Positions 312 through 21,856 of a DNA stretch of 35,146 nt are shown here, in pieces. Position 1 is the stretch's first letter. Every line of letters starts with the position of its first letter. Where the stretch lies: contig JAHIRU010000074.1 of assembly GCA_018818465.1 (NCBI GenBank), positions 1-35,146 on the forward strand. The letters are read 5' to 3'. The position numbers were made by a program, and so were the translations under genes. This DNA comes from Nanobdellota archaeon. GTDB taxonomy: Archaea > Aenigmatarchaeota > Aenigmatarchaeia > QMZP01. The notes under the pieces are model-generated. The model did no database searches, was not told the DNA's origin, and was given only the letters and a program-made list of their open reading frames with translations.

Positions 312-1709
312 ATGAAAATATTATTCGTCTATCCAAATCTAATGCGAGAAGAATACATACCTCTAGGTTTAGCTTCGATAGCAGCATATGTCAAAGAACA
401 TGACCATGAAACATTCCTCATGGATTACACGTGGGGCGGAACAGCCAAAGACTGCATAAATATGGCGGAGAAAGTAAAACCAGACGTGGTCGGCTTCTCT
501 TTACGTAGTGGAGAATTTAATTTTTCATTATCAATTGCAAAAGAACTGAAAAGAAGACATCCAAATATTCTAATATTGTTTGGTGGAATACATCCAACAG
601 TTGATCCTGAAGGTACGATAAAACAGGATTGTGTTGATGCAATAATTCAAGGCGAAGGCGAACATGCTCTTGTAGAGCTTCTAAACAAATTGAAAGAAAA
701 GAAAGATTTCTCTAAAATCAAAAATCTTTGGACCAAAAAAGATGGAAAAATATTTAGGAATCCTGTAAGATCTCTTATAGAAGACTTGGATAAGCTTCCA
801 TTTCCAGACAGAGAGCTGTTTGGCTTTAAACGATATCTTGATGCAAGATCAGGAACAGCTGATATAATGGCTGGCAGAGGATGCCCTTTCCAATGCACCT
901 ATTGTATTAATCATATTTCTCAGAAGATGTACAAAGATAAAGGCACGTATACAAGAATGCGTTCTCCAGAAAATGTAATAAAAGAATTGCAGGAACTTCG
1001 CAAAAAATATAAAATAAATTTTGTTGCATTCGAGGATGATACTTTCACTTATTCAAAGGATTGGATGCGCAGATTCTCAAAGCTTTATGTTAAGGAAATA
1101 GCTTTGCCATGCAGCTGCAATGCGCGGCCAGAAACAATGGATGATGAGATGGCAAAGATGTTAAGTGAAATGGGCTGTACAACATTGAATATGGGAATAG
1201 AATCAGGCAATGAAAAAATCCGTCGCGAGGTCTTGAAAAGATTCAACACAAATGAACAGATAATTAAAGCTTTCCAGGCTGCAAACAATCATGGATTGAA
1301 AACATATTCTTACAATATGGTTGGCCTTCCATACGAAACAGAAAAAGAGATGTGGGAAACCGTGCATCTTAACAGGCGTGCAAAACCAACTGTTGTTGAT
1401 GCTTCTATTTTCCAGCCTTATCCAGGTACAGAGTTACAATCGTTATGTGAAAAGAATGGCTGGATAATGGATATGTCAACTCTTCCTTTTTCACATAAAT
1501 TCATATCAATAATGAAATATCCGAATGTTTCCAACAAAGAAATCAAATATTGGAAACGCATGTTCCGTTTCCGTGTCCTTCGGAAAACCAACATAAGAAA
1601 AGCGCTGGCATTACTTGTACTAGATTGGAATTATGAATCCTTCATCAAAAACAGAGACAAAATCCCAAGTTTCGCCAAGGCGATGTTATACAAATTATGG
1701 AGATTTTAG
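312..1709 (+). CDS. B12-binding-domain radical SAM protein (subfamily A, rSAM-A1)
   Basis: 465 aa. The N-terminal cobalamin-type Rossmann domain shows PLGLASIAAYV, VVGFSL, LFGGIHPT and QGEGEHA. The radical SAM core has CxxxCxxC = CPFQCTYC (Cys codons at 882-884, 894-896, 903-905) and a GIESGNE motif. Confidence 0.9.
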   Translation: MKILFVYPNLMREEYIPLGLASIAAYVKEHDHETFLMDYTWGGTAKDCINMAEKVKPDVVGFSLRSGEFNFSLSIAKELKRRHPNILILFGGIHPTVDPEGTIKQDCVDAIIQGEGEHALVELLNKLKEKKDFSKIKNLWTKKDGKIFRNPVRSLIEDLDKLPFPDRELFGFKRYLDARSGTADIMAGRGCPFQCTYCINHISQKMYKDKGTYTRMRSPENVIKELQELRKKYKINFVAFEDDTFTYSKDWMRRFSKLYVKEIALPCSCNARPETMDDEMAKMLSEMGCTTLNMGIESGNEKIRREVLKRFNTNEQIIKAFQAANNHGLKTYSYNMVGLPYETEKEMWETVHLNRRAKPTVVDASIFQPYPGTELQSLCEKNGWIMDMSTLPFSHKFISIMKYPNVSNKEIKYWKRMFRFRVLRKTNIRKALALLVLDWNYESFIKNRDKIPSFAKAMLYKLWRF

Positions 1710-1740: not shown

Positions 1741-1761
1741 TTTGCATGTGTATGCTTCATT

Positions 1762-2049: not shown

Positions 2050-2050
2050 A
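2041..2050 (+). promoter_or_regulatory. TATA-like box ~25 nt upstream of the Wzx ATG
   Basis: tatttttaaa overlaps the stop of the 95-aa ORF. No SD lies before ATG 2071. Confidence 0.3.
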
Positions 2051-2070
2051 CCCATCACACAAATTTAACT

Positions 2071-3357: not shown

Positions 3358-3358
3358 T

Positions 3359-5411: not shown

Positions 5412-5427
5412 TTTTGGAAAACACAAT

Positions 5428-6324: not shown

Positions 6325-6326
6325 TT

Positions 6327-7016
6327 TTATTTTAGAATTTCTTTAACCGTTGCATTCACGAAAATTTTCATTGTGTCGTATATTTCAATTTTCGAGTGCT
6401 CTGGTATTAAAAGTTGAAGATCAGTACAGGCTAAAATAACATGTTCCAATCCTTTCTTTTCGAAATTGTTTACTATCTTAAGAAGTTCTTTCCTATCTCT
6501 ATTTTCATGCCTGTTCATCACAATGTTTTTTATTAATTTTCCTATTTTAGCTTGCTCAAAACCATCCGGAACAATCTGTTTTATCTTTTCCTTTCCGAGT
6601 GCAGATTCGTACAATTTACCTTTCAACAAAGTCGATGTTGCTAATACCCCAACACTTGGTATATTTTTACTTTTCAAAAATTTTGTAGTTTCTTCAACAA
6701 TGCTTAATACTGGTATTTTAACTGCTTTTCTTATATCATCTATGAAAACATGTAAAGAATTGCATGGCATAACCAAAAAATCTGCACCACTCTTTTCAAG
6801 TTTTTTTGCAGCATCTATTAAATATGGTATATATCTTTCTTCTCCACTAGCTTTGGTCAATAAATCTTCTTCAATTTTATATTTCAATGGAACATTCCAT
6901 ATCAAAACAGGGGGCCTACTATCCTTATTTTGTTGATAACAACTAAAAATTGTTTCTAAATAAAACTCTGCTGTAGTTTCAGGACCCAGACCACCTATAA
7001 TACCAACGGTTTTCAT
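6327..7016 (-). CDS. aspartate racemase (Asp/Glu/hydantoin racemase family)
   Basis: 229 aa. Shows MKTVGIIGGLGPETTAEFY and both catalytic-Cys motifs, MPCNSLH and ILACTDL. Confidence 0.82.
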   Translation of the reverse strand: MKTVGIIGGLGPETTAEFYLETIFSCYQQNKDSRPPVLIWNVPLKYKIEEDLLTKASGEERYIPYLIDAAKKLEKSGADFLVMPCNSLHVFIDDIRKAVKIPVLSIVEETTKFLKSKNIPSVGVLATSTLLKGKLYESALGKEKIKQIVPDGFEQAKIGKLIKNIVMNRHENRDRKELLKIVNNFEKKGLEHVILACTDLQLLIPEHSKIEIYDTMKIFVNATVKEILK

Positions 7017-7037
7017 ATGAATAGCATAATTTAATTC

Positions 7038-7047
7038 TTTATAAATT
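7038..7047 (-). promoter_or_regulatory. TATA-like box ~26 nt upstream of the racemase ATG
   Basis: The minus strand reads aatttataaa. No SD lies between it and ATG at 7016. Confidence 0.3.
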
Positions 7048-7071
7048 TTATCAAAAATTGGTGCATTTCAT

Positions 7072-8244
7072 TCAGATTGAACAATAGAATTTCAAATATT
7101 TTTTTGCAACACTTTTCCAACTCATATTATCAACGATGAATTTTCTTGCGTTATTTTCGATCTTATTTCGAAGTTTTTCATCATTTAATAACAACGTTAT
7201 ATATTCAGCCATTTTCTTTTTATCGAGTACTTCTGTTATCATTCCATTCTCTTTATTTTTTACAACTTTGCTCATCGAACCGGTATTAGTTGTAACAACA
7301 GCTCTGCCTACCGACATTGCTTCTGGGACTATTTGTGAAACACCTCCTATGCTTACAAGAGGGAAAAAGCAAACATCTGCCATTCTATAAGCGTTTACAA
7401 CAAGATCTCTTGGTACAGGGCCGACCAATTGCACAGGAGCGCCTGTTTTTTCAATATGTTTTTTAACATCATTGAACATCGGCCCACCACCAAACATCAA
7501 ACCTATAACACCGTTATCTTTTATAGAATTTATCACATCTACAAAATCCTTCGGTCCATTTTCATAATACAAAAGGCCAACAAAAACAATTATCTTTTTG
7601 TTTTTAGGAACAATGATATTTTTTTGTTTTAGAATATCTTCAAACTCTTTATCTAATTTTTTATCCTTGAACATCTCTGTATCTATACCGTTTGTTATGG
7701 TTACAATCTTTTTTCCATCAATACCGTGACTCATAAGAACATCTTTCAAGTCATCACCGTCTGTAACAATCCTATCAGCAATTTTAAAAGAAATTCTTGA
7801 AGTGATTAAACTCAAAAAGCTCTTTATTCCTCCGCGACGAGCAGCCTCTTTGTAAATATTTCCACCAAGATGGACAACTAGTTTTTTTCTTAAAAATATT
7901 TTTAATATTGAACCGAACATGCCTGCAAATGTTGGTCCATCGCAATGAATTATATTAGAACTTCTTATTTCAGGATCGCTTAATAGACTGTAAATTATTT
8001 TTGGAAATCTTTTTGTCGAGTGGGTGTATTCAGAATATCTTTCCTCAAAAACTTGTTTTGCATAAATGGGTCTGGTTTTGTAAGGAAGCTTCGAGTAATC
8101 AAATTTTGAACTTGCGTTTGTTGGATGAACAACAACATCTATTCCTTCAGCTATCACATTCCTCGCTATTTCATGCGTCTGTGTCGGTGTTCCGCCTAGC
8201 TTAGGGAAGAACACGCTTGCTATTAGTGAAACTTTAGGAGTCAT
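7072..8244 (-). CDS. GT4-family (GT-B fold) glycosyltransferase
   Basis: 390 aa. The N-terminus FFPKLGGTPTQTHEIA and the C-terminal domain GGVSQIVPEAMSVGRAVVTTNTGS are typical of retaining GT4 enzymes. Confidence 0.8.
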   Translation of the reverse strand: MTPKVSLIASVFFPKLGGTPTQTHEIARNVIAEGIDVVVHPTNASSKFDYSKLPYKTRPIYAKQVFEERYSEYTHSTKRFPKIIYSLLSDPEIRSSNIIHCDGPTFAGMFGSILKIFLRKKLVVHLGGNIYKEAARRGGIKSFLSLITSRISFKIADRIVTDGDDLKDVLMSHGIDGKKIVTITNGIDTEMFKDKKLDKEFEDILKQKNIIVPKNKKIIVFVGLLYYENGPKDFVDVINSIKDNGVIGLMFGGGPMFNDVKKHIEKTGAPVQLVGPVPRDLVVNAYRMADVCFFPLVSIGGVSQIVPEAMSVGRAVVTTNTGSMSKVVKNKENGMITEVLDKKKMAEYITLLLNDEKLRNKIENNARKFIVDNMSWKSVAKKYLKFYCSI

Positions 8245-8287
8245 ACAGAATTCATAACAAGTATGTTTTTTAAGTTTTAATTAAGCT

Positions 8288-8300
8288 AAAAAATTAAAAA
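8288..8300 (-). terminator. oligo-T tracts (T5 and T6) immediately after the rSAM-B1 stop
   Basis: The minus strand reads caaatttttaattttttagc directly downstream of TAG (8305-8307). Oligo-T runs act as archaeal terminators. Confidence 0.3.
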
Positions 8301-8304
8301 TTTG

Positions 8305-9681
8305 CTATTTTTTCATCCATTTGCTGAAATTGAAAACAAATAATGGAAGCCTTATCAGCTGTTTTGCTGACATCATAGAAAGGACTGATTTAACAGCAAA
8401 CAGACGCATGTAAAAACTCCTGTAGGCCTTTCTTCTATACAGTTGTATTTGATTGCTTGAAAAGTTGGGATAGGAAACAGTTGCTGTCCCCTGTTCAACA
8501 CTTTTCCAATCATCTGACGAAAACCAGCCATTTTTCTTGGCATCTTCATAAAATTTGCTTCCAGGGAACGGGGTTGCTATATAAAATTGGGCAAAATTTA
8601 TTTTCAATTCCTTTGCAAAATTTATGGTATCCATTTCGGTTTTTTCATCAGAACCAGGCAATCCTATTATGAAATGGCCTATAATTTTTAGCCCATTGTC
8701 CCTGGCTGTTTTAGCGGCTTTTTTCGATTGCTCAATTGTTATACCTTTATTGTTCCTATTCAGAACATTTTGGTTGCCTGATTCAAAACCAAACGAAATC
8801 ATTTGGCAACCAGATTCCTTCATTTTTTTAGCCAATTCATCATCAAAACAATCTACTCTTGTTGTACAAAACCATTTTACTTTTTTACTTAAACCTTCTT
8901 TCACCATCAAATCACAGAATTTTTTCATGCGTTCCCTATCAAATGTAGCCAATTCATCCCACATCATCCAAACCTTTATTCCTATATCATTGACCAACCA
9001 TTTGAACTGTTCAACCATATATTCTGCTGAATGATATCTAACATTTCTTCCTGCCAGAAGTGGCATTACACAATAAGAACAATTAAACGGACATCCTCTT
9101 CCCGACCTGGCAAAAGTCCATTTTTCTCCCGTCAAAGGGAATCTATATTCTGGTAGAAGATCATATGCAGGAAAAGGCAACGAATCCAAATCAGGCTCTT
9201 GCCAGATACCGCCATCCCATGCTCTGGTAGCAACTCCTTTAACCTTATATTTGCCTTCCAATATGCTCATTACAGGTGTTTCAGCCTCTCCTAATACTGC
9301 GAAATCTATCTGTTTGTGTTTTTCGAGCAAATCTTTATACCTTGATGTTACGTGTTCTCCATACATTATTATTTTAGAACCTGTCAATTTTTTTATCTCA
9401 TCTGCGGTATTCACATCCATCTCTATTGTCGGAGTTGAGGTGTTTATAATCGAAAAATCAGGGCTAAAATTATTTACTATTTTCATACAATCTTCGAATG
9501 AAAGTTTTGAACCCATACAATCAATAAGTTTTAATTCATACTTTTCTCTAACACATCCAGCTATGCTCGCAAAGGCTGTGGGAGGAAACGTATCGAGCCA
9601 TGTATTTTCCTCACTCTGGCATCTTCCATCTCTACTAAATCTGAGGCCAAATGTGGGAGGGTTTAAAACTAAAACTTTCAT
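8305..9681 (-). CDS. B12-binding-domain radical SAM protein (subfamily B, rSAM-B1)
   Basis: 458 aa. N-terminus NPPTFGLRFSRDGRCQ, then INTSTPTIE, YGEHVT, CxxxCxxC = CPFNCSYC and FGFESGNQ. Its start overlaps the stop of the upstream GT-C gene in an ATGA (9678-9681), preceded by AGGTGAT. Confidence 0.9.
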   Translation of the reverse strand: MKVLVLNPPTFGLRFSRDGRCQSEENTWLDTFPPTAFASIAGCVREKYELKLIDCMGSKLSFEDCMKIVNNFSPDFSIINTSTPTIEMDVNTADEIKKLTGSKIIMYGEHVTSRYKDLLEKHKQIDFAVLGEAETPVMSILEGKYKVKGVATRAWDGGIWQEPDLDSLPFPAYDLLPEYRFPLTGEKWTFARSGRGCPFNCSYCVMPLLAGRNVRYHSAEYMVEQFKWLVNDIGIKVWMMWDELATFDRERMKKFCDLMVKEGLSKKVKWFCTTRVDCFDDELAKKMKESGCQMISFGFESGNQNVLNRNNKGITIEQSKKAAKTARDNGLKIIGHFIIGLPGSDEKTEMDTINFAKELKINFAQFYIATPFPGSKFYEDAKKNGWFSSDDWKSVEQGTATVSYPNFSSNQIQLYRRKAYRSFYMRLFAVKSVLSMMSAKQLIRLPLFVFNFSKWMKK

Positions 9682-11180
9682 TCTATCACCTGATTTTTAG
9701 TGTTAATATTTAAATTCAAACTCTTATAAATTATGAATATTTTTTGCCCATTTTGATAATTTTCATAAACGTTTTCAAACAAATCACTATTTTCTAATTG
9801 CGTAAAGATTGAAGATTGAAATTCGGTGTCAGGTGGAATTCTGTTGGATCGGTATTCGATTTGTATAGGCAATTTTATACCAAACAGTTCAGGATTGTAA
9901 TAATAGTGAACAGGGTGTCTGTCATATTCACCGTATATACTTATTATAACATAATCCACATCGTTATTCAGAATCCATTCCTCAACATTTTGTTCTATTT
10001 CTCCCCTTTCGATTTTACTTCCAGGAAAATCTACAACATTGAGATGGAACAATGAAAGATAGTAAGGCGATACTTCACTTGCTATGATAGCATCTTCTGG
10101 CAGATTTGAAACATAACCACTTGCAGGAATTCTTGCTAAATGATGATTTGAATCAAAAGATAATGTCCAAGCTGAAAACACAACACCGAATATAACAAAC
10201 AGAACAAAAACAATTTTTGTTATAATTTTGCTTTTTTCTTTTAACCAATCAATTCCTAGTGCTGCAATACATGAATATATTGGAAACATTGCAAACAAGA
10301 ATCTGTCCTCTTTAAAATTCAATACTTGAAAAACTGCAAAGAATACAAAGAATGTTATTAAAAGCAATTCGTTCTGCGGAGTTCTTTTTTTCCAGATTTT
10401 ATAAATTCCGAATAAGAAAAACACTGACCAAGGAATAGCCGCAAATCTTATGATATAATAAAAAATATTGGTTCCACTCACACCTGAAACAAAAAACAGG
10501 TGCTCTAAACCAGAACTTCCAGATAGAATATATACAACTAGAAAAACAGTCAGAAAGACAAACAGAAATGTTGATATCGACTCTAAGAATTCTTTTGTCT
10601 TTACTAAATTTAATTTTTTCTTAAATAACAGATAAATAAAGTAAACCGGTATCAATATTGCTCCAGTAAACTTTGTTAGCATTGCCAACGCAGTAGAAAT
10701 TCCAAGCAGTGTTGATTTTTTCTTTTTTTCTGTTAATTCAAAGAAAAACAATATTGATAATAAAACAAAAATCGTGAGTAAAGTTTCTACTAAAAGTCTT
10801 TCTGTCCATCTCCAGAAATAAGGAAGCGTTAACAGTATGATTGTTGATACGCATCCACTTCCGATCATTCTCTTTGAAAAAACAAAAGAAACTATTATCA
10901 GCGCTATTGTCAATATCAACGGTAAACCGAATATGATTGCATTAACGCTCGCACCTACTAAAAATGATAGTGAAATAAATAATGGTAAAAGAGGTCCTCT
11001 ATGAAAAACACCTAAAGAGTAATCTCCGTTTAGAATTTCATTACCAAGTGTAAGATATTGTTCTTGATCAGGATAAAAACTATTCCCAGGAAACATTACG
11101 ATATAGAAAATACTGGATAGTATACACACTGTTACCAAGAACTTAATATCGTTCTTTGAAAGGTCTTTTATGGCGTGCAT
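9678..11180 (-). CDS. GT-C fold membrane glycosyltransferase, ArnT/PMT_2 (GT39/GT83)-like (GT-C a)
   Basis: 500 aa. The first ~340 aa are polytopic. The first loop, after TM1, is acidic (FYPDQEQYLTLGNEILNGDY). It carries an ALAMLTKFTG motif ([AG]L[AG]xL[ST][KR], shared by all three paralogs) and a soluble C-terminal domain of ~150 aa. Confidence 0.65.
   Translation of the reverse strand: MHAIKDLSKNDIKFLVTVCILSSIFYIVMFPGNSFYPDQEQYLTLGNEILNGDYSLGVFHRGPLLPLFISLSFLVGASVNAIIFGLPLILTIALIIVSFVFSKRMIGSGCVSTIILLTLPYFWRWTERLLVETLLTIFVLLSILFFFELTEKKKKSTLLGISTALAMLTKFTGAILIPVYFIYLLFKKKLNLVKTKEFLESISTFLFVFLTVFLVVYILSGSSGLEHLFFVSGVSGTNIFYYIIRFAAIPWSVFFLFGIYKIWKKRTPQNELLLITFFVFFAVFQVLNFKEDRFLFAMFPIYSCIAALGIDWLKEKSKIITKIVFVLFVIFGVVFSAWTLSFDSNHHLARIPASGYVSNLPEDAIIASEVSPYYLSLFHLNVVDFPGSKIERGEIEQNVEEWILNNDVDYVIISIYGEYDRHPVHYYYNPELFGIKLPIQIEYRSNRIPPDTEFQSSIFTQLENSDLFENVYENYQNGQKIFIIYKSLNLNINTKNQVIE
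9685..9691 (-). promoter_or_regulatory. Shine-Dalgarno AGGTGAT for rSAM-B1, inside the 3' end of the GT-C a gene
   Basis: The minus strand reads AGGTGATAGAATGA, with the ATG and TGA overlapping. Confidence 0.5.
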
Positions 11181-11186
11181 ATGGAT

Positions 11187-12584
11187 TTATCGGAATACAC
11201 CTTTAAATATCTCAAAACCAGCCTTTATCGTCCATTTTAGTTCGTTTACAGATTTTATTGTAAATAATAGATCTAACATTTTTACTGGCCTGAGATAGAA
11301 ACTTCTGAAAGCCTCTCTTTCATAATAAATAACATCTTTCCTGTTAAGATTATGTAATTTGTAGTAAGTTTCTGCACTAAAAAACCCACCTTCAGAACCA
11401 GATGTTGTTGGTTTTATGAATTCACCATCCCTCTCTATCATCTGATAAAGTTCTGTTCCAGGAAAAGGTATTGTAACAGAGAAATTTGCTATATGAGGAT
11501 TCACATGCTTAGCAAAGCTTATAGTCTTTTCCACATCTTCTTTAGTTTCATACGGCAAACCTATCATGAAAAACCCGTAAGTTATAATCCCTTCTTCTCT
11601 AAACCATCTTATCGCTTGATTGACTTTTTTCAAGTCGAGAGACTTCTTTATAACATTTAATATTTTTTCATCACCAGATTCTATACCAATGCCAACTTTG
11701 AAAACACCTGCCCTTTTCATTTTTTTGACAAGATTCTTAGTTAATCTATCCGCTCTTACACCATTCTGTAAATTTATTTTTATGTCAATTTTTCGCTCTA
11801 TTATCATATCAAGAACTTTCTCAGCGTTTTCCATTATCAAAGTGAAATTATCATCAAGAATATCTATTTGTTTTACGCCATAATCATTAACTAGCATCTC
11901 TATTTCTTCGATTATGTTTTCTGCAGAACGATATCTGAAAACGCGACCAAAGATATTTTTATTACAAAATATACACCCATAAGGACATCCTCTGCTTGTT
12001 AGAATTGGTGACATAGGAACCTTTCTGGATCGAGATTGATACAATTTGAAGTCCGGGAGTAAATCATATGCAGGAAAAGGCAACGAGTCCAAGTCCTTTA
12101 TCAATTCCCTATTAGGATTGTGTTTTATTCTACCCCTATCCTTGAAACTTATGCTTTTCACTTTTGAAAGCGAGTTTAAGTTGTTCAAAAGATCCACTAT
12201 AGTTTCTTCACCCTCGCCTCTAACAACACATAAAGCATCAGAATCCTGTAAGGTTCTTTCTATCATAGAAGTTGCATAAGGTCCTCCTATAATAACTGGT
12301 TTTTTAAGCTCATTTTTAATTTTTTTTGAAAGCTCTACAGCAGCTCTTGCAAGAACAACGTTACTCATTATACCAACTACATCTGGATCGAATTTAGAAA
12401 GTTTTTTAAGAACTCTTTCATTTGTCATCCTGAGAATGTTAGCATCTATTATAATGCATTCTAATCCTCTCTTTCTTAGGACAGCTGCCATATACGCCAA
12501 ACCTATAGGTGGATATATTGTGGCAGTATTGATGCCCTTCGCATAATATGGAAACGGGTTTACAAAAGCAATTCTCATTTTCAT
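11187..12584 (-). CDS. B12-binding-domain radical SAM protein (subfamily A, rSAM-A2)
   Basis: 465 aa. Shows PIGLAYMAAVL, VVGIMS, IIGGPYAT, RGEGEETI, CxxxCxxC = CPYGCIFC and GIGIESGDE. Confidence 0.9.
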   Translation of the reverse strand: MKMRIAFVNPFPYYAKGINTATIYPPIGLAYMAAVLRKRGLECIIIDANILRMTNERVLKKLSKFDPDVVGIMSNVVLARAAVELSKKIKNELKKPVIIGGPYATSMIERTLQDSDALCVVRGEGEETIVDLLNNLNSLSKVKSISFKDRGRIKHNPNRELIKDLDSLPFPAYDLLPDFKLYQSRSRKVPMSPILTSRGCPYGCIFCNKNIFGRVFRYRSAENIIEEIEMLVNDYGVKQIDILDDNFTLIMENAEKVLDMIIERKIDIKINLQNGVRADRLTKNLVKKMKRAGVFKVGIGIESGDEKILNVIKKSLDLKKVNQAIRWFREEGIITYGFFMIGLPYETKEDVEKTISFAKHVNPHIANFSVTIPFPGTELYQMIERDGEFIKPTTSGSEGGFFSAETYYKLHNLNRKDVIYYEREAFRSFYLRPVKMLDLLFTIKSVNELKWTIKAGFEIFKGVFR

Positions 12585-12587
12585 AAT

Positions 12588-13259
12588 TTACCAAAGATTT
12601 TTGAATACTCTCCAAGCATAAACCCAACCCATTCTCCAAATATTTATTCCAGATTCACCATACAGTCTCTTTTTTTCTTGGCTCGAAACTTCTACAATTT
12701 TGTACCCTTTTTTGTAACATTTCATTACCATCTCGGTTTCTACATCAAATATATTTGCTTCAAGCTTTAGGTCTTTAGCTACATCGGTTTTTATAGCTCT
12801 GAAACCGTTTTGTGTGTCGCCTATGGCTGTACGAAATCTCCAATTTATTAATTGGGCAATAGAAATGCTAAGAAACATTCTCATAAATTTACCAAAATCT
12901 CCGTGAAGTTCTTCACTTCCTCCCATAAATCTTGATGCTATTACCATATCTGCATTACCACACTTTATGGGTTGCACTATTTTGGGTATGTCTTCTGGTA
13001 TATGAGATCCGTCTGCATCTATGAAAACTATTATATCCCCGCTGGCATGTTCAATTCCAACCCTTATGCCATCACCCTTTCCTTTACCGTTATCAACAAC
13101 TGTTCTAATGCCCATTTCCTCTGCTATTTCTTTTGTTCTGTCAGTTGATTTTTTCGCAGAAACGACCAATATTTCATCGCCATACGGCTTGACTTTTTCC
13201 AGAATATCCTTTATAGTTCTCTCTTCATTAAAGGTAGGAACAACAATAGACACTTTCAT
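12588..13259 (-). CDS. GT2-family glycosyltransferase, soluble dolichyl/polyprenyl-phosphate sugar synthase-like (GT2 a)
   Basis: 223 aa. Shows VSIVVPTFNEE, a DxD-type FIDADGSH motif and a GT-A fold pattern. No TM segment. Confidence 0.8.
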   Translation of the reverse strand: MKVSIVVPTFNEERTIKDILEKVKPYGDEILVVSAKKSTDRTKEIAEEMGIRTVVDNGKGKGDGIRVGIEHASGDIIVFIDADGSHIPEDIPKIVQPIKCGNADMVIASRFMGGSEELHGDFGKFMRMFLSISIAQLINWRFRTAIGDTQNGFRAIKTDVAKDLKLEANIFDVETEMVMKCYKKGYKIVEVSSQEKKRLYGESGINIWRMGWVYAWRVFKNLW

Positions 13260-13292
13260 GTTAGTTTTTAACGAAACTATAATATAAATAGT

Positions 13293-14246
13293 TTAAATTT
13301 TTGGCTTAACAGGGGTTTTTATCCAAAAAAACAACCCTATTGGCACTGTAATCCAATAACCAAAAACAAGGTAAACAAGCGAAAAACTTATTATCATTCC
13401 TTTTGACATACCAACTAATGGCAAGACAAGCAACAAGAACGTTTCCCTAGTGCCTATGCCTGATACAGAAACAGGTATAAGCTCAATTATTACCATAACG
13501 CTTATGACAGCGAAAATAAATAAATAATTGAACGATATACCAAACGCTAACCCAAAGAATAGGGCCAGCATTATAGAAAACAACCAAATAAAAATATTAA
13601 ATAGAGTTATAGTAAAAAGATTCCTTTTTTTATTTTTTAGTTCTCCAAAAACATCATAGAACCCATAAAAATCCAGCTTTAACTTTTCTTTATATTTGCC
13701 TGGTACAAACAAATTGAATAATGGTTTTAGCAATTTCCTCATGGAATTCTTTCTTGTGAATATGTAAAAACCAACAAAAAAGGCGGCAACAAATCCCAAA
13801 ATCAATCCAAACGATATGATTGTATACCCAAACCATACATTCAGCAGGATGACCCCTATCAGGGCAGAACATAATACAACAGCCAGATCTATTATTCTAT
13901 CAGCAATAACTACGGATAATCTCTTTCCGAATGGTTGCAAATCATCCAGATAAAAAACTTTTATAAAATCTCCAACTCTTCCAGGCGTAATTAATCCTGT
14001 GAATAAACCAATTGACCATATTTTGAAACAATTAAACATACTTTCATCAAAACCGTGTGCATTAATTACCATTTTGAATTTTATTGCCCTCAAAAAGAGA
14101 ATGAAAAAGGCAGAGCCAATGCCTAACAATAAAAAGAAAATATTAATTTGTTGGAAAGATGCTATTATTTTGTCGATTCCAATATTCCAGACAATGTATG
14201 CAAATAAAGCAACACCTATAACAGGCATGTAATTTAAAATTTTCAT
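13293..14246 (-). CDS. UPF0104 / MprF-type flippase-like domain membrane protein (a)
   Basis: 317 aa and polytopic. It carries the two hallmark pseudo-repeat motifs of the family: ITPGRVGDFIK (P-x-x-x-G-[DE]) and IPVSVSGIGTRE (P-x-x-G-x-G-x-x-E). Confidence 0.7.
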   Translation of the reverse strand: MKILNYMPVIGVALFAYIVWNIGIDKIIASFQQINIFFLLLGIGSAFFILFLRAIKFKMVINAHGFDESMFNCFKIWSIGLFTGLITPGRVGDFIKVFYLDDLQPFGKRLSVVIADRIIDLAVVLCSALIGVILLNVWFGYTIISFGLILGFVAAFFVGFYIFTRKNSMRKLLKPLFNLFVPGKYKEKLKLDFYGFYDVFGELKNKKRNLFTITLFNIFIWLFSIMLALFFGLAFGISFNYLFIFAVISVMVIIELIPVSVSGIGTRETFLLLVLPLVGMSKGMIISFSLVYLVFGYWITVPIGLFFWIKTPVKPKI

Positions 14247-14263: not shown

Positions 14264-14273
14264 ATTTAAATAA
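14264..14273 (-). promoter_or_regulatory. TATA-like box ~22 nt upstream of the UPF0104 a ATG (start of the 14246->8305 operon)
   Basis: The minus strand reads ttatttaaat. No SD. Confidence 0.3.
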
Positions 14274-14449: not shown

Positions 14450-15391
14450 ATGTATCGAAATAAAAAAATAAGTGTCGCAATGCCGGCATATAATGAAGAA
14501 AAATTAATAGAGAAAGCTATTAAATCCATCCCTGATTTTGTAGATAAATTAATAGTAGTTGATGATGATTCAAAAGACAATACATTTTCTATAGCAAAAA
14601 AATACGAGGGCAAAAGAGTTACAGTAATAAAACATACAAAAAATCAGGGTGTTGGCGGAGCCATAATAACCGGTTTCAAAGAGGCTTTGAAAGAAAAAGC
14701 AGATATAGCTGTTGTAATGGCAGGAGACGCCCAAATGGATCCAAACGATTTACCAAATATATTAGATCCTATAGTAAATAATGTTGTTGACTGCACGAAA
14801 GGGAACAGGTTCCTTCACCCAGAAATTTACAAAAAAATGCCAAAATTCAGATTGTTTGGCAATAGAATTTTAACAATACTGACAAAGATATCGTCCGGAT
14901 ACTATCACATATCTGATCCGCAGAATGGATATGTTGCAGTTTCAAGAAATGTTTTAGAAACAATTGATTGGGGCATGGTTGATAAAAGATTTAGTTTTGA
15001 AAACGATATGTTGATTCATCTCAACGTAAATAATTTTTCAGTGAAAAACATAAAAACAAATCCTATATATGGCGAAGAAAAATCCAAGATAAAAATTCAT
15101 AGTTTTGCACTAAAACTTAGTTTTCTCCTAATAAAAAAGTTTTTCTGGAGAATAAAAGAAAAATATTTTGTAAGAGATTTTCATCCAACATTTATATTTT
15201 TTATAGCAGGTTTCATTATGCTTTTTTTCGGTTTGATTTGGAGCTTGCTTGTTTTGAGGGCAAGATTCATCACGCCTGATATAACATGCGGATCAGTTGT
15301 TCTTTCCGCTTTATTATTGATTTGTGGTTCACAATCAATTTTCACAGGATTCATCCTTGACATGTATGAAAGTAAAACATTAAAAACATAG
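14450..15391 (+). CDS. GT2-family polyprenyl-phosphate glycosyltransferase with two C-terminal TM helices (ArnC/GtrB-like; GT2 b)
   Basis: 313 aa. Shows ISVAMPAYNEE, VVDDDSKD, AGDAQMD, and C-terminal helices FIFFIAGFIMLFFGLIWSLLVL and GSVVLSALLLICGSQSIFTGFIL. Confidence 0.85.
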   Translation: MYRNKKISVAMPAYNEEKLIEKAIKSIPDFVDKLIVVDDDSKDNTFSIAKKYEGKRVTVIKHTKNQGVGGAIITGFKEALKEKADIAVVMAGDAQMDPNDLPNILDPIVNNVVDCTKGNRFLHPEIYKKMPKFRLFGNRILTILTKISSGYYHISDPQNGYVAVSRNVLETIDWGMVDKRFSFENDMLIHLNVNNFSVKNIKTNPIYGEEKSKIKIHSFALKLSFLLIKKFFWRIKEKYFVRDFHPTFIFFIAGFIMLFFGLIWSLLVLRARFITPDITCGSVVLSALLLICGSQSIFTGFILDMYESKTLKT

Positions 15392-15399
15392 TGATAAAA

Positions 15400-16650
15400 A
15401 TGCAAAATAAAACGTTATCTAAGGTTGATTTGATCAGAAATGAACTGGATTTGGAATATAAACAATCCATAATTTTAAAGTACACGTTACTATTGGGTTT
15501 AAGAGAAAAAATACCGCCAAGTATAAGAAACAGGGTTGGATTTTCGTTTGAAAAATTAAAAAATCCAAAAAGAGATTTTCCAATAGACAGAAAAGTACAA
15601 ACACTGGAATACGAAGCTATGAAAAAAAATGTTTCAGAAAAAAAATATCATCTAATGATTAAACCATGGACAACATTCTCGGCATGCTTCACACATGATG
15701 TGGATACATTTTATGATTTAAAGGAAGGAATATCAATCCTCAGAAAAATCGAGAAAAAACATGACATAAAATCAACATGGAATTTTGTTCCAGAGTCAAA
15801 AGAATATAAAATAGATAAAGAACTTTTAAAATCACTTGAAAGAGACGGCCATGAAATAGCATCACATAGTTTAAAGCATGATGGAAAATTCGCTTTTTTG
15901 AGCAAACATGAAAGAAGATTAAGAGTTAGAAAATCAAAGGAAATTTTCAAAAAAATGGGATTCAATATCAATGGTTTCAGGGCGCCCTGGTTACATAGAA
16001 CAAGGGATTTAATATTATTTCTGGAAGAAAATAAATATCTTTGGGATTCTTCATTTCCAGACACTGACAACACAACGATTGGTTACAGAGGAACGGGCTG
16101 TTCTACAGTTTTTCCTTTTCAACCTTTAATCAAAGAAAACAAAGGCTATAGAAAATCAAGCATAATAGAACTGCCTATAACAGTCCCACAGGACTGGAGC
16201 TTAATACACCCAATGAAATTATCAAATGAAAAAATATTATCTTTATGGATTGAGAAGGTTGATTATATAGAAGATGTTGGAGGTCTTGCTCTTTTTTTGA
16301 CACATCCAGCAAAATATGATATCGGGAACAATGAAAGATCATGGATTTACGATGATATTATAAAATATATAAAAAACAAGAAACCATTCATTGGCAGATG
16401 TATTGATGTAGCAGAGAGATGGAAGGCAACCAACGATATTCAGTATAATCTGGATATAAAAAAAATGAACTTGCATATGAAGTCTGAAAGAAGAATAAAG
16501 AATCTAGCCTTCTATATATTTTCACCCAAAAATGAAAAATTGAAGAGCAACGACTGCGAACTTCTGAAATCTGACATTTTTTTCAACAAAAAAAGGTCTC
16601 TATTTTTGGTAAAAAGCCTTGATAGAGAAATGAACATGCACTTCCACTAA
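15400..16650 (+). CDS. polysaccharide deacetylase (NodB homology, CE4) with N- and C-terminal extensions
   Basis: CE4 motifs occur in order: FTHDVDT (Asp-Asp), HSLKHD (H-S-x-x-H) and FRAPW (RxPY-like). The track begins at a GTG at 15391, which overlaps the upstream stop. ATG at 15400, preceded by AGTGAT, is the alternative I list. Confidence 0.8.
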   Translation: MQNKTLSKVDLIRNELDLEYKQSIILKYTLLLGLREKIPPSIRNRVGFSFEKLKNPKRDFPIDRKVQTLEYEAMKKNVSEKKYHLMIKPWTTFSACFTHDVDTFYDLKEGISILRKIEKKHDIKSTWNFVPESKEYKIDKELLKSLERDGHEIASHSLKHDGKFAFLSKHERRLRVRKSKEIFKKMGFNINGFRAPWLHRTRDLILFLEENKYLWDSSFPDTDNTTIGYRGTGCSTVFPFQPLIKENKGYRKSSIIELPITVPQDWSLIHPMKLSNEKILSLWIEKVDYIEDVGGLALFLTHPAKYDIGNNERSWIYDDIIKYIKNKKPFIGRCIDVAERWKATNDIQYNLDIKKMNLHMKSERRIKNLAFYIFSPKNEKLKSNDCELLKSDIFFNKKRSLFLVKSLDREMNMHFH

Positions 16651-16651
16651 A

Positions 16652-16660
16652 CATTTAAAG
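16652..16660 (+). promoter_or_regulatory. TATA-like box ~25 nt upstream of the rSAM-A3 ATG (possible internal promoter)
   Basis: catttaaag sits in the 30-nt gap after the CE4 stop. No SD. Confidence 0.3.
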
Positions 16661-16680
16661 ATTTTCTTTTAACTTAAACT

Positions 16681-18192
16681 ATGAAATTTGAATTCATCAG
16701 ACCACCTTATACATATTTTGGCATGCTGGTATCGCCAAGAATAGACATACCGCTTGGACTTTTATACATAGCTACCAAATTGGACAAAATGGGTTATGAA
16801 GTTAAAATATTCGATGCTTTAATAGAGAACCCAAAGATATCCAGATACGGAAATATCATACATTTTGGAGAATCATGGGAAAACGTTAAAAAAGAGATAG
16901 AGAGAACCAGACCGGATATTGTTGGCATAACAAACCAGTTCACACAACAAATAAGGAGCAGCATACAATTAGCAAAAATTATCAAGGAAGTTGATAAAAA
17001 CATAACAGTAGTTGTTGGTGGAAACCACCCATCAGTCCTACCAAATGATTTTTTGAACAGAACAGAAGACATTGATATAATAGTTATGGGTGAGGGCGAG
17101 GAAACATTCCCTGAAATAATAGAATATAAAAACGGCAATAAAAAACTAAAAGACATAAAAGGAATAGCTTACAGGGAAAAGGGAAAAATAAAAATTAACG
17201 AAAGAAGAGAATTTATAAAAAATCTGGATGAAATTTCAATACCATCATACCATTTAATAGACATAGAAAAATATTTTGCAGCAGTTAAAGAAGGGTTTTC
17301 GACAAGACCAGACCAATACACAGAATCAGAGAGACAGGTTTCAGTAATAACAAGCAGAGGATGTCCATTCAATTGTGTTTTCTGTTCAATTCACTGCCAT
17401 ATGGGAAAAGTTTGGAGATCACATTCACCTGAATATGTTTTAAAACATTTAGAGATTCTGACAAAAAAATATAATGTGAAACATATTCATTTTGAAGATG
17501 ACAACCTAACTCTTGACCCCAAAAGATTTGAATCAATTTTAGACGGAATAAAAAAGAGGAACATAAAAATAACATGGGACACACCGAACGGTGTAAGGCT
17601 CGATACATTGAATAAGAAGCTTATAGAGAAAATGAAAGAGTCAGGATGTCGCCAGTTAAAAATAGCAATAGAATCAGGTGATCAAAAAACACTTGATGAA
17701 ATAATTGATAAAAAACTTGATTTAAAAAAAGCAGTTGAAATAGCAAAAATATGCAGAGAACTCAAATTACCATTAAGCTCATTCTATATAATAGGTTTTC
17801 CGTATGAAACCAGGGAATCAATAGAGAAGACATTGAATTTCGCATTTACTTTGAAGAAAAAATATAAAGTCAGACCTCACGTGAGTATAGCCATACCTAT
17901 GATGGGAACAAGGCTGCATGATATTTGCGAGAAGAACGGATATATATTGAAAAAGGCATTTGATAGCGACAGTGTTATAAATGTTTTTGGTGAGGGTGTT
18001 ATAAAAACAGAAGAATTTTCCCCAGACGATCTCCAAAGATATATCCATAAATTCTACCAAAAAATACTATTGACCTATATAGAGGACATGATATGCGAGC
18101 CTTCCATTTTTTTAGGAATGTTGAAAAGATTTTTCAAAAACCCAAAGTCAACATTAAATGTAATAAAAGCAGGGACTAGCTACCTAAAATAG
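16681..18192 (+). CDS. B12-binding-domain radical SAM protein (subfamily A, rSAM-A3)
   Basis: 503 aa. Shows PLGLLYIATKL, IVGITN, VVGGNHPS, MGEGEETF, CxxxCxxC = CPFNCVFC and IAIESGDQ. Confidence 0.9.
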   Translation: MKFEFIRPPYTYFGMLVSPRIDIPLGLLYIATKLDKMGYEVKIFDALIENPKISRYGNIIHFGESWENVKKEIERTRPDIVGITNQFTQQIRSSIQLAKIIKEVDKNITVVVGGNHPSVLPNDFLNRTEDIDIIVMGEGEETFPEIIEYKNGNKKLKDIKGIAYREKGKIKINERREFIKNLDEISIPSYHLIDIEKYFAAVKEGFSTRPDQYTESERQVSVITSRGCPFNCVFCSIHCHMGKVWRSHSPEYVLKHLEILTKKYNVKHIHFEDDNLTLDPKRFESILDGIKKRNIKITWDTPNGVRLDTLNKKLIEKMKESGCRQLKIAIESGDQKTLDEIIDKKLDLKKAVEIAKICRELKLPLSSFYIIGFPYETRESIEKTLNFAFTLKKKYKVRPHVSIAIPMMGTRLHDICEKNGYILKKAFDSDSVINVFGEGVIKTEEFSPDDLQRYIHKFYQKILLTYIEDMICEPSIFLGMLKRFFKNPKSTLNVIKAGTSYLK

Positions 18193-18200: not shown

Positions 18201-19091
18201 TTACTTTTTGGTAGCCTTTGAATTGTCTATTTTAATAGATTTATAAAATACAACAAATCCCACTATTATCATAATGCCAAGCATTAGTGCATAAAGAAGC
18301 GGTATCAAGAGAGCGATTCCGATATTGGTTATCGCACCCTGAAGCAAAAAACCCATACTGAATTCTCTTGTTCCCCAGCCACCAGGAAGGTATGAAATGA
18401 TACCTGCCAATAATGATACGCCTAAAATATTTGAGGCCTGTACGAAACCTATATTCACATCAAGTGAATAAATTATAAACATTAAACTAAACACAATTCC
18501 AATTTTATGCACAATTGAAAGTAAAACAATTTTGATGATTCCAAATTTATTATTTACAATTTTTTTGTACATCGAGTAAGTTGCAATGATTGAGGTCAAT
18601 AACAGAAAAAAACACAGCATTATTATGTTTGTGGCGAATGCAAAGACAGCGAGTATAGCAACATCCAGTATCCTTTCAGATAACGGAACTATCAAACATT
18701 TTTTTCTCGAGCATCCTGTTTTGTTTCTTATAAATTCTATTTTTGAAAATTCCCCTAAATTTGCTGGCGTTACATGACCAAGAGAATTTGCAGAAAACAA
18801 AATCTTAAGAGAGTCCTTGAATGATATGTTACTATTAGTAACGATTTTAACCATTATCTGGAGTCGCTTTCCTACTATCAAGGCAACACCGAATGAGAAA
18901 ATTATAGCAAAAATGAAAAGCGGAAGATTTATTCTGTAAAAATATTTTCCAATTTCATCGAAATTAACATACAGCATCCAACCATAAGTAGCAATAACGA
19001 AGAGTGTCAATACCGATATCAAAATCTTCAGAACAACTCTGATTTTTCTATTTTCATAAAACGATTTTAGATAATCTAAATCTAAATGCAT
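18201..19091 (-). CDS. UPF0104 / MprF-type flippase-like domain membrane protein (b)
   Basis: 296 aa and polytopic. Motifs VTPANLGEFSK and LPGGWGTRE. Confidence 0.7.
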   Translation of the reverse strand: MHLDLDYLKSFYENRKIRVVLKILISVLTLFVIATYGWMLYVNFDEIGKYFYRINLPLFIFAIIFSFGVALIVGKRLQIMVKIVTNSNISFKDSLKILFSANSLGHVTPANLGEFSKIEFIRNKTGCSRKKCLIVPLSERILDVAILAVFAFATNIIMLCFFLLLTSIIATYSMYKKIVNNKFGIIKIVLLSIVHKIGIVFSLMFIIYSLDVNIGFVQASNILGVSLLAGIISYLPGGWGTREFSMGFLLQGAITNIGIALLIPLLYALMLGIMIIVGFVVFYKSIKIDNSKATKK

Positions 19092-20434: not shown

Positions 20435-21856
20435 TTAAAACGCATTATGTTTCAGGAAATTAGCTCCTGCAACAAACCACCTGAAGAACTGCTCTGGTGA
20501 TTTTATTTTTTTTAAGACGGAAAAAACATAACTCGGTTTTAAATAAAAACTCCTGTATGCATTCCTTATTAGTTTGTTTAATTCTTCTGTACTCAACTCT
20601 TCTGTTCTGAGAACAGATGTATAACCACCGCAAGCGTATTTGTTCCATTCGGTCGATGTTATCATATTTTTTCCATTAACAATGTCATATAATTCTGTTC
20701 CAGGATATGGTATTAGTGGATTGAATGTAGCAAAATCAGGATTTAATTCCTTAGCAAAATCCACTGTTTTTTTGAAAGTTTCTTTAGTTTCTCCTGGAAG
20801 GCCGCAGAGAAAAGAGGTTATTACATTTATTCCAGAATCCTTTATCATTCTAACAGAATCCCTTATCATAGGTATTGTTGTCCCTTTTTTTGCAACATCC
20901 AATAATTCCTGAACACCGCTTTCAATCCCTATACTCAAACCAACACAACCACTCTTTTTCATTAATTTTAGCATTTCCATATCAATTGTTCCTGCTCTGG
21001 AATTTGCAAACCATTTTATATCTATTTTTCTGTCAATTAAGCCCTTGCACAATTCCATCACAAAATCGCGTTTTAAAGTGAAAGTATCTGCCCAAAAGGT
21101 TACTGCCTTGAAACCATTTTTAACAACTTCGAATTCAATCTCATCCAAAACACTCTTAGGGCTCCTGAATCTACTTTGGTCTCCATAGTATATTCTCGCA
21201 ACACAGAAAATACATTGAAACGGGCAGCCTCTGGCAGTTTGCACAAGGGTGTGCCTTCTGTTCAAGTAAAAATCATAATAAAGATTGTTTGGCAGAAGGT
21301 GTCTGGCTGGCCATGGAAGAGAATCAAGGTCTTCAATCCATTCCCTTGTCTTATTAACATATATTTTAGAGTCTTTTTGTGCTGAAGTTCCTTTCACTTT
21401 TAAGAAATTTTTACTGTCTCTAATAGCCTGGCAAAGTTCCAGCGCTGTCATTTCAGGTTCACCCCTTATAACAACATCTAGTGCTGGATTCGATTTCAAA
21501 ATCTCATTATGAAGGACAGTTAAATGTGTTCCAAAAGCAGCTATGATTGTTGCCGGGCTCATTATTTTGATTTTTTTTATGGTTTCCATATCACTGTCTA
21601 TAGAAACAGTTGATGTGTTCATTATTATTATGTCATAACCCACTGAAACGATATTTAGAAGTTCATCCACAGACATGCCTGTTGCTACACCATCTATGAG
21701 TTTTGGTTTAAAGCCACTCTGTTCAAGAATACCGCCTATACAAGCAAGACTCAATTGCGGATAATTGAAACCTTTCCACCAATCACCAGGATTTTGGCAT
21801 CTACCTTCTCTTGCCGTAAGCGTTTCTGAGGGTGGATTTAACAATAATATTTTCAT
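20435..21856 (-). CDS. B12-binding-domain radical SAM protein (subfamily B, rSAM-B2)
   Basis: 473 aa. Shows NPPSETLTAREGRCQ, MNTSTVSID, FGTHLT, CxxxCxxC = CPFQCIFC and IGIESGVQ. Confidence 0.9.
   Translation of the reverse strand: MKILLLNPPSETLTAREGRCQNPGDWWKGFNYPQLSLACIGGILEQSGFKPKLIDGVATGMSVDELLNIVSVGYDIIIMNTSTVSIDSDMETIKKIKIMSPATIIAAFGTHLTVLHNEILKSNPALDVVIRGEPEMTALELCQAIRDSKNFLKVKGTSAQKDSKIYVNKTREWIEDLDSLPWPARHLLPNNLYYDFYLNRRHTLVQTARGCPFQCIFCVARIYYGDQSRFRSPKSVLDEIEFEVVKNGFKAVTFWADTFTLKRDFVMELCKGLIDRKIDIKWFANSRAGTIDMEMLKLMKKSGCVGLSIGIESGVQELLDVAKKGTTIPMIRDSVRMIKDSGINVITSFLCGLPGETKETFKKTVDFAKELNPDFATFNPLIPYPGTELYDIVNGKNMITSTEWNKYACGGYTSVLRTEELSTEELNKLIRNAYRSFYLKPSYVFSVLKKIKSPEQFFRWFVAGANFLKHNAF

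Follow-up and report, generated by a model that had tools for sequence, protein, structure and literature searches.

An operon of five genes on the minus strand of a Nanobdellota contig (GenBank assembly GCA_018818465.1, contig JAHIRU010000074.1) places two radical S-adenosylmethionine enzymes (rSAMs) among genes for glycosyltransferases and a flippase-like membrane protein. The whole stretch that was analysed, 35,146 nt in length and here called the window, contains this operon at positions 8305-14246. In the order of reading, its genes are UPF0104_a, GT2_a, rSAM_A2, GT-C a and rSAM_B1, joined by gaps of +33, +3 and +6 nt and, at the last junction, by an ATGA overlap (-4 nt, 9678-9681). An earlier note on this DNA had described the same gene order, coordinates and four junctions, as well as the AGGTGAT motif ahead of the overlap, and all of these were confirmed from the open reading frames (ORFs), Pfam matches and direct reading of the sequence. 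It had further proposed that the rSAM subtype tracks the neighbouring glycosyltransferase, A-type beside GT2 and B-type beside GT-C. Across related loci we find a different partnership, in which rSAMs of the B1 clade are paired with a GT2 of the lipid-sugar synthase type. This conserved GT2-rSAM pair, to all appearance undescribed, is the finding most worth pursuing, and we regard the underlying module as a variant of three-component glycosylation.

UPF0104_a (13293..14246), the first gene of the operon, encodes a flippase-like protein with eight hydrophobic segments, which matches Pfam LPG_synthase_TM (1.6e-36) and exceeds the cutoff of the NCBIfam "flippase-like domain" family TIGR00374 (96.6 bits, cutoff 43.2); we propose that it may translocate a lipid-linked sugar. 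GT2_a (12588..13259) encodes a soluble protein of 223 aa (Pfam Glycos_transf_2, 1.2e-25), whose top match in the PDB is the Dol-P-Man synthase of P. furiosus (5MLZ, 1e-18), followed by ArnC. Its best NCBIfam matches are AglJ, PpgS, dolichyl-phosphate hexose transferase and ArnC, each below its equivalog cutoff. Judged by these matches, GT2_a is of the polyprenyl- or dolichyl-phosphate sugar synthase type, with a sugar specificity that the matches do not set. rSAM_A2 (11187..12584, with the start placed by gene callers at M3, position 12578) combines a B12-binding domain (Pfam, 5.7e-20) with a radical SAM domain (Radical_SAM, 1.1e-26) and is class-B-like; its profile matched AprD4, OxsB, TokK and CysS in the PDB about equally. 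GT-C a (9678..11180) has nine transmembrane (TM) segments and resembles the ArnT/ALG/PMT enzymes, with Pfam matches to PMT_2 (4.4e-11) and Glyco_transf_22 (9e-9) that are both above threshold. Its Asp38, in the first outside loop, is invariant in four aligned GT-Cs. A phmmer search of GT-C a against the PDB gave no match, and the top fold matches of its AF2 model, namely ArnT (5F15), ALG12, ALG9 and PglB, give weak support, coming as they do from a poor model (pLDDT 57). Of these, ArnT, ALG12 and ALG9 take their sugars from polyprenyl-monophosphate donors. The homolog search returned a single close relative of GT-C a, at 61% identity, from the locus L141 described below. The last gene, rSAM_B1 (8305..9681), is AprD4/HpnJ-like (Pfam Radical_SAM, 1.1e-23; B12-binding, 8.5e-10).

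The ends of the operon carry plausible signals, both read from the sequence. A TATA-like element, TTATTTAAAT (14264..14273, minus strand), lies ~18-27 nt 5' of the UPF0104_a ATG and is a candidate archaeal promoter for what would be a leaderless first gene, and an oligo-T tract, TTTTTAATTTTTT (8288..8300, minus strand), starts 5 nt past the rSAM_B1 stop and is a candidate archaeal terminator. The two would fit a five-gene archaeal operon that is probably read as a single transcript. Unlike the putatively leaderless first gene, internal genes such as rSAM_B1 use Shine-Dalgarno (SD) sequences; the SD-like AGGTGAT (9685..9691, minus strand) falls in the last part of the GT-C a gene and leaves 3 nt to the ATG of rSAM_B1. 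The ATGA overlap itself is ordinary, because tight junctions are common in the window: among the 21 between same-strand genes, 5 are overlaps and another 8 measure 11 nt or less. We therefore rejected the overlap as a special coupling signal.

The labels A and B come from the earlier note, which also spoke of a GT-C/B12-rSAM pair. The window has seven rSAMs (six complete and one partial). All six complete ones score above the Pfam thresholds for both PF02310 (B12-binding) and PF04055 (Radical_SAM), so B12 does not separate B from A, and the B12-domain scores are 35-42 bits for the B-types versus 72-83 bits for the A-types. The paralogs are 27-35% identical to one another in pairs, and A-to-B scores overlap A-to-A scores (216 bits for A2-B2, near the 228 bits for A2-A3). 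In a neighbour-joining tree of 188 sequences with 30 bootstraps, B1, B2 and B3 formed one clade free of A-types in 23 of the 30 replicates, and the three A-types clustered as a clade in just 3. By this tree, "B" is a real, AprD4/HpnJ-like clade, and "A" is not a clade, merely the remainder.

Several comparisons place the B clade near two known enzymes. HpnJ (TIGR03471) is the top curated NCBIfam family for B1 (230 bits), B2 (263) and B3 (236), and it also matches A2 (202), A3 (182) and rSAM_1 (187), all of these scores lying below the cutoff of 577.6. Scores against the AprD4 family (NF033070) are 128.8, 126.9 and 136.1 bits for B1, B2 and B3, short of the cutoff of 500. AprD4, the radical SAM 1,2-diol dehydratase of apramycin biosynthesis (6FD2), is the best profile and fold match of rSAM_B1: the profile of B1 orthologs found it at 5e-43, and the AF2 model of rSAM_B1 (pLDDT 92.8) superposes on it along its full length with a TM-score of 0.83, versus 0.64-0.73 for cobalamin-dependent methylases. 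The two proteins are alike in layout, with an N-terminal Rossmann/B12-like domain followed by the rSAM barrel, and the cysteines of the CxxxCxxC radical SAM core (C197, C201 and C204) are invariant across the B1 family. AprD4, the best structural relative of the B-types, is not known to use cobalamin. TM segments were looked for in the window rSAMs and none were found. We read B1 as an AprD4/HpnJ-like enzyme of the non-methylating type and A2 as class-B methylase-like.

There are also differences from AprD4. No AprD3-type reductase partner is evident beside B1, and the setting is that of a surface glycan instead of an aminoglycoside. Near the N-terminus (rSAM_B1 residues 17-28), members of the B1 family share a near-invariant R-x-G-R-C-Q motif, with Cys21 and Trp28 invariant; the family also conserves a hydrophobic C-terminal tail (F452, W455). 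The motif region, the least confident part of the rSAM_B1 model (pLDDT 72-74), could possibly provide an extra ligand or a contact with the membrane.

Within the window, the proposed pairing of subtypes with glycosyltransferases breaks down on inspection. The arrangements cited for it are correct: GT2_b, CE4 and rSAM_A3 do follow one another, rSAM_B3 lies 69 nt after GT-C b, and the partial seventh rSAM precedes GT2_c by 71 nt. Yet A2 adjoins both GT2_a (3 nt) and GT-C a (6 nt), A3 stands beside CE4 rather than GT2_b, A1 and B2 have neither kind of neighbour, and GT-C c has no rSAM; the cases are so few that the pattern is no better than chance. We therefore turn to related loci, where 192 full-length rSAM homologs in 137 loci could be counted. 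Scanning GTDB species genomes with a B1-family alignment yielded 57 of these loci, and scanning metagenomes with an A2-family alignment yielded the other 80. ORF classes were assigned by jackhmmer seeded from window proteins and spot-checked against Pfam, and six strict A2 orthologs and the sole GT-C a ortholog were checked individually.

The rule failed this comparison, which the earlier note had itself called for: the count ran opposite to the prediction. A GT2 directly adjoined 33 of 85 B-like rSAMs (39%) and 16 of 107 A-like ones (15%; Fisher p=2e-4), and a GT-C adjoined the two equally (6/85, 7%, versus 7/107, 6.5%; p=1), although p-values here and below overstate independence, the loci having been seeded from B1 and A2 relatives and kin lineages included (~13 similar Thermodesulfobacteriota loci). 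When subtypes were taken from the tree, the difference for GT2 grew, with 25 of 44 B-clade rSAMs (57%) beside a GT2 versus 24 of 138 other rSAMs (p=1e-6); the corresponding counts for GT-C were 6/44 (14%) and 16/138. Unrelated genes in the same loci served as background and were beside a GT2 in 7% of cases and beside a GT-C in 8%. The link of B-clade rSAMs with GT2 is found in DPANN archaea, Thermodesulfobacteriota, Acidobacteriota and Omnitrophota, and the direction of GT2 adjacency for B-like rSAMs holds in several archaeal and bacterial phyla.

At the level of whole modules, GT-C genes do belong to the picture. Counting up to four genes away, 75% of B-clade rSAMs had a GT2 and 73% had a GT-C, versus backgrounds of 29% and 28%. 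The looser association of B-clade rSAMs with GT-C is thus real; what does not stand from the earlier claim is direct adjacency, which is near background. Could B-type rSAMs nevertheless be dedicated partners of GT-Cs, either in a membrane complex or as obligate translational couples, with A-types partnering GT2s? Two of the three window B-types follow a GT-C, one of them with the ATGA overlap and a good SD, and the module-level co-clustering would fit. We consider this very unlikely, because GT-C adjacency does not distinguish A-like from B-like rSAMs, the B-like ones are those found beside GT2, and the A-types do not form a clade. Single loci point the same way: in L141 the gene after the GT-C a ortholog encodes an unrelated SPASM rSAM, in L049 a GT-C is followed by an rSAM of the A2-like kind, and in L023 the GT-C b ortholog is followed by an A3-like one.

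Orthologs of the two operon rSAMs give a sharper view. In 12 of 20 readable cases, a strict B1 ortholog has a GT2 directly upstream on the same strand, and in 1 case a GT-C. This upstream GT2 is always most similar to GT2_a, and the gaps are mostly 1-5 nt. It is the B1 and GT2_a orthologs that are tightly joined, and the ATGA coupling of GT-C a with rSAM_B1, to which the earlier note had attached importance, is particular to this contig. A 4-nt overlap of GT2 and B1 called in L006 was rejected as an ORF-caller artefact (a TTG start; the true gap is 2 nt), and the 4-nt overlap in L014 was called by the same ORF caller. Of the strict A2 orthologs (51-73% identity), 5 of 6 adjoin a GT2, in convergent or divergent orientation, and in 2 of those 5 the next gene encodes a PMT-type GT-C.

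The gene orders behind these counts vary around a common core. The closest comparison is L141 (Nanoarchaeota, GCA_043814765.1), which is collinear with window positions 312-14246 at 61-86% amino-acid identity. There, the order UPF0104 > GT2 > GT-C > SPASM-type rSAM > GT4 (L141:377-4676) keeps the UPF0104_a ortholog (66% identical) and the rSAM_1 ortholog (86%) in position, lacks rSAM_A2, and has a 361-aa non-B12 SPASM rSAM in the slot of rSAM_B1. Since rSAM_A2 has no counterpart in this collinear relative, it may be an accessory tailoring enzyme. GT-C a is the least conserved of the shared proteins (61%, versus 66-86% for the others), and L141 also lacks the Asp/Glu racemase of the window. In L001 and L002, the order is GT-C > UPF0104 > GT2_a > B1 > methyltransferase. 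A bacterial cassette of GT2_a-like > B-clade rSAM > NodU-like carbamoyltransferase > PMT_2 GT-C occurs in Thermodesulfobacteriota, one Acidobacteriota metagenome-assembled genome (MAG) and one Omnitrophota MAG (L025-L037 and L048; for example L030:8995-15092), and suggests a carbamoylated, rSAM-modified sugar. Its NodU-like O-carbamoyltransferase is ~564 aa and its GT-C ~600 aa long, and in Thermodesulfobacteriota it is often beside lon. In Undinarchaeota (L009:6250-15836 and L015), AglB/STT3 is followed by a polyprenyl-P HexNAc-1-P transferase, the B1 ortholog, a YfhO-type GT-C and a membrane polyferredoxin. The polyferredoxin, a multi-TM protein of 737 aa that carries several 4Fe-4S ferredoxin domains, is a candidate for supplying the rSAM with electrons from the membrane side.

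What recurs in these loci is an enzyme that loads a sugar onto polyprenyl phosphate, an rSAM after it, and a GT-C close by; the rSAM slots themselves vary. The order GT2_a-A2-GT-C a-B1 in the window resembles the conserved pair of GT2_a and B1 with A2 and GT-C a inserted between them or, equivalently, the scaffold of L141 with two rSAM plug-ins.

How might a cytoplasmic rSAM serve a glycosyltransferase that acts on the other side of the membrane? In three-component systems, a GT2 charges polyprenyl phosphate inside the cell, a small membrane protein flips the product, and a GT-C transfers the sugar outside (PMC11127046). The archaeal AglD/AglR/AglS route is an equivalent scheme with dolichyl phosphate (PMC3827465). 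The GT-C active site does face outward and the rSAM is cytoplasmic, as the earlier note had observed; what it took for a puzzle is explained by these known systems, since the GT-C donor is built, and can be modified, inside the cell. Of the three component types of the Gtr, Arn, CsbB-GtcA-YfhO and AglD-AglR-AglS systems, the window holds both glycosyltransferases, and a candidate for the translocator, in triplicate: 3 GT2, 3 UPF0104/LPG_synthase_TM and 3 GT-C (PMT_2) proteins. The best curated matches of GT2_a, GT2_b and GT2_c are polyprenyl-phosphate sugar synthases (AglJ, PpgS, dolichyl-P hexose transferase and ArnC, below equivalog cutoffs), all three GT-Cs exceed the PMT_2 gathering score and have 8-9 TM segments each, and the three UPF0104 proteins, located in or beside each module, pass the TIGR00374 cutoff. 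From this set and these family matches we read three three-component systems. Two features set them apart from the known ones, namely a candidate flippase of the UPF0104/MprF-flippase-like kind, not GtrA, SMR or MATE, and the one or two rSAMs embedded in the modules.

We hypothesize that the operon is one of three such modules in a DPANN-type surface-glycan island, and that its cytoplasmic rSAMs tailor the lipid-linked sugar; taken whole, this proposal has about an even chance of being right. A GT2 of the DPM-synthase/ArnC type would load a sugar onto dolichyl (polyprenyl) phosphate at the cytoplasmic face. The soluble rSAM would then, most probably, tailor this Dol-P-sugar after loading and before flipping, so that its substrate would be lipid-linked and not nucleotide-linked. 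A UPF0104 flippase-like protein would carry the lipid-linked sugar across the membrane, and an ArnT/ALG/PMT-type GT-C would hand it to a glycan, protein or lipid acceptor outside. The products may be unusual sugars, for example deoxy, branched or otherwise rearranged ones, and gain, loss and swapping of rSAM genes between relatives would diversify the surface glycan. The earlier note had already raised remodelling of a lipid-linked donor before export as one option, and we retain it as the best-supported explanation, with the rSAM step itself being inferred. Broader is the idea that the AprD4/HpnJ-like clade, which ranges over DPANN archaea, Thermodesulfobacteriota, Acidobacteriota, Omnitrophota and Planctomycetota, acts directly on polyprenyl-phosphate-linked monosaccharides. 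In this "four-component" route, with the rSAM genes as swappable cassettes, sugars that are radically rearranged, deoxygenated or C-branched would reach the cell surface; we think this somewhat short of an even bet.

There is precedent for tailoring at this stage. The ORF13 epimerase and DprE1/E2 act in the cytoplasm on undP-Ribf or decP-Ribf pentofuranose, and gain or loss of tailoring genes alters the sugar that three-component systems add (PMC11127046). In the searched full-text literature, we found no published rSAM inside Gtr/Arn-type modules, an absence that applies to that literature only; the earlier note had known of no precedent for a GT-C/B12-rSAM gene pair. Another precedent for tailoring a carrier-linked donor is ArnD, a CE4-type deformylase. 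The GT2_b-CE4 pair in the window presumably mirrors ArnC-ArnD in the order of enzyme classes.

The choice of substrate draws on the nearest characterised relatives. AprD4 and HpnJ both use sugars that are already attached, the AprD4 substrate paromamine being a sugar ring in glycosidic linkage, and we accordingly propose Dol-P-sugar for the rSAMs. An alternative is that the rSAMs act earlier, on soluble nucleotide-activated sugars, that the GT2 then loads the modified sugar, and that the clustering reflects a shared pathway. The island does hold an SDR epimerase/dehydratase, two DegT aminotransferases and a hexapeptide acyltransferase, and a DegT gene lies 3 nt ahead of the B1 ortholog in L021 and L022. 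Moreover, nucleotide-linked substrates are known for certain rSAM and B12-rSAM enzymes, DesII and Fom3 among them. We nevertheless think this alternative unlikely: nucleotide-sugar enzymes are not the usual partner, and the immediate neighbour is typically a lipid-charging GT2 (57% of the B clade) or, in Undinarchaeota, the polyprenyl-P HexNAc-1-P transferase, with the rSAM usually placed after the GT2. The habit of AprD4 and HpnJ of working on glycosidically attached sugars argues in the same direction.

The likeness to HpnJ raises a second alternative, in which GT2, UPF0104, rSAM and sometimes CE4 make a modified glycolipid head group in the manner of hopanoids or calditol, and the GT-Cs do a separate job. 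In the hopanoid pathway, the glycosyltransferase HpnI and the deacetylase HpnK come first, and HpnJ then acts on the hopanoid-linked glucosamine (PMC13459092; PMC9204698). The Hpn module (HpnI/HpnK/HpnJ/HpnL) has the same set of classes as the window, GT2, CE4, rSAM and UPF0104, and GT2_b-CE4-rSAM_A3 repeats the glycosyltransferase-deacetylase-rSAM order of HpnI-HpnK-HpnJ (PMC13459092). Genes of the HpnL type are enriched near hopanoid loci (bioRxiv 10.1101/2025.07.29.667474), UPF0104_a matches HpnL weakly (27 bits versus a cutoff of 195), the best family for B1, B2 and B3 is HpnJ, and only 14% of B-clade rSAMs are directly beside a GT-C. Comparable by description is the calditol synthase Cds of Sulfolobus, an archaeal rSAM whose proposed role is the rearrangement of a hexose head group linked to lipid; reports of its homologs are mainly from acidophiles, and its route has no GT-C. 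On the other side, Hpn scores fall so far under the cutoffs that we rejected HpnIJK orthology. Curated families gave no HpnI or HpnK match among the window GT2s and CE4, the GT2s resembling polyprenyl-phosphate sugar synthases instead, and none of the 29 window ORFs is a hopanoid gene (shc, hpnH, hpnI, hpnK), a squalene-hopene cyclase or a lipid-synthesis gene. The host here is archaeal, and the GT-Cs are part of the module: they stand within four genes of the rSAM far above background, they share the operon here and the cassette in bacteria, and the 3:3:3 stoichiometry of GT2, UPF0104 and GT-C suits donor modules. A glycolipid product thus seems improbable.

Finally, the target of the rSAMs might be the isoprenoid carrier or the membrane lipids, as it is for Tes, Grs, Gms and HpnP/R, and not the sugar. 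Many lipid-modifying enzymes are B12-binding rSAMs (PMC13459092), and the window rSAMs match ladderane-lipid rSAM and HpnR models weakly. Because those matches are weaker than the ones to AprD4 and HpnJ, the context is wholly glycan biosynthesis and the conserved partner is a glycosyltransferase, we hold this to be extremely improbable.

If the rSAMs act on a Dol-P-sugar, as we favour, the linkage constrains the chemistry. Ring contraction of the HpnJ/Cds type would remove the anomeric phosphate linkage that a GT-C needs, so that modification away from C1 is the likelier course for B1, for example dehydration/deoxygenation or epimerisation; for A2, C-methylation would be the more likely outcome. 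The same constraint counts against transferring the function of HpnJ simply to these enzymes, and further points weigh against our proposal. As a group, DPANN archaea are generally expected to make neither cobalamin nor lipids of their own, which leaves the supply of cofactor and carrier unexplained. Substrate and chemistry are drawn from neighbourhood and distant homology: rSAM_B1 is 22% identical to AprD4, and its HpnJ score does not reach half of the family cutoff. UPF0104 proteins are unproven as flippases in modules of this kind. A search for TM segments found none in GT2_a, whose membrane association is assumed, and the AF2 model of GT-C a, made from a four-sequence alignment, is of low confidence. 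The neighbourhood counts carry the kinship of loci described above, and the metagenome scan with the A2 alignment keyed on generic rSAM motifs, returning relatives 30-48% identical to A2.

Lipid-linked sugars, if they are indeed the substrates of the rSAMs, would add a new substrate class to radical SAM chemistry and a new way of making unusual cell-surface sugars. Its relevance may be greatest in DPANN archaea, whose surfaces mediate host attachment, and in several poorly studied bacterial phyla. The GT2-rSAM pair is a compact, testable unit, for which two soluble or peripheral proteins and polyprenyl phosphate would suffice to reconstitute it in vitro. For annotation, genes labelled "BchE/YgiQ-like radical SAM" would belong to glycosylation modules, and the telling neighbour is the GT2, not the GT-C.

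The remainder of the window (G+C ~33%) has the same character, all 29 of its large ORFs being assigned to glycan biosynthesis by Pfam. Its proteins are most closely related to those of MAGs that carry the labels Nanohalarchaeota, Woesearchaeota, Nanoarchaeota, Iainarchaeota, Altiarchaeota and Undinarchaeota (DPANN-type archaea). The window also makes up nearly all of contig JAHJTQ010000060.1 (assembly GCA_018829405.1), and ENA and Logan contigs that reach 49.7 kb contain the locus too; one of them on ENA, k141_554202, continues for 14.6 kb past the right end of the window. These contigs were located with rSAM_A2 and GT2_c; an exact look-up of rSAM_B1 in the contig index found nothing. Directly upstream of the operon, and on the plus strand, lie GT2_b (14450-15391; Pfam Glycos_transf_2, two C-terminal TM segments), a CE4 deacetylase-like gene (15391-16650; Pfam) and rSAM_A3 (16681-18192; Pfam), the third gene of the series. 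We propose that these three (14450..18192) are the cytoplasmic part of the second module. UPF0104_b (18201..19091, minus strand; LPG_synthase_TM 1.3e-22; TIGR00374 54 bits, above cutoff) is flippase-like and convergent with rSAM_A3. Further along, rSAM_B2 (20435..21856, minus strand), a B-clade member with no GT-C neighbour, sits between FemAB-like and FAD amine-oxidase-like genes, and GT-C b (25520-27262, minus strand; PMT_2 6.8e-15) precedes rSAM_B3 (24053-25450, minus strand; Radical_SAM/B12-binding by Pfam). On the plus strand, GT-C c (28245-29576; PMT_2 1.4e-13) is paired with UPF0104_c (29587-30504; LPG_synthase_TM 4e-29). The right end holds GT2_c (34083-34949, minus strand), with two C-terminal TM segments, and upstream of it the partial seventh rSAM (35021-35146, minus strand), of which the C-terminal 41 residues lie at the window edge, where the NCBI contig stops. 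Near the left end, rSAM_1, the "A1" of the pairing scheme (312..1709, plus strand), is a B12-binding rSAM beside a Wzx flippase operon, with no GT2 neighbour.

Beyond the Wzx flippase and the nucleotide-sugar enzymes discussed above, the window also encodes two GT4 proteins and two methyltransferases. Amino-acid-type enzymes form another group in the island: an Asp/Glu racemase (6327-7016), the FemAB-like protein (21861-22901) and an AsnB-type amidotransferase (32311-34086). With the two DegT aminotransferases, they hint at sugars bearing amino acids, possibly D-amino acids, or amides. The window encodes seven B12-domain radical SAM enzymes within 35 kb, and the sources of their cofactor and reductant, and of the dolichol carrier, are unexplained. 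Two small features remain at the left end. The ENA annotation places a 95-aa ORF with no Pfam match (1762-2049) between rSAM_1 and Wzx, and a partial ORF on the minus strand (window 1-300) runs off the left end, with a hydrophobic start and a composition rich in Cys, Ser and Thr.

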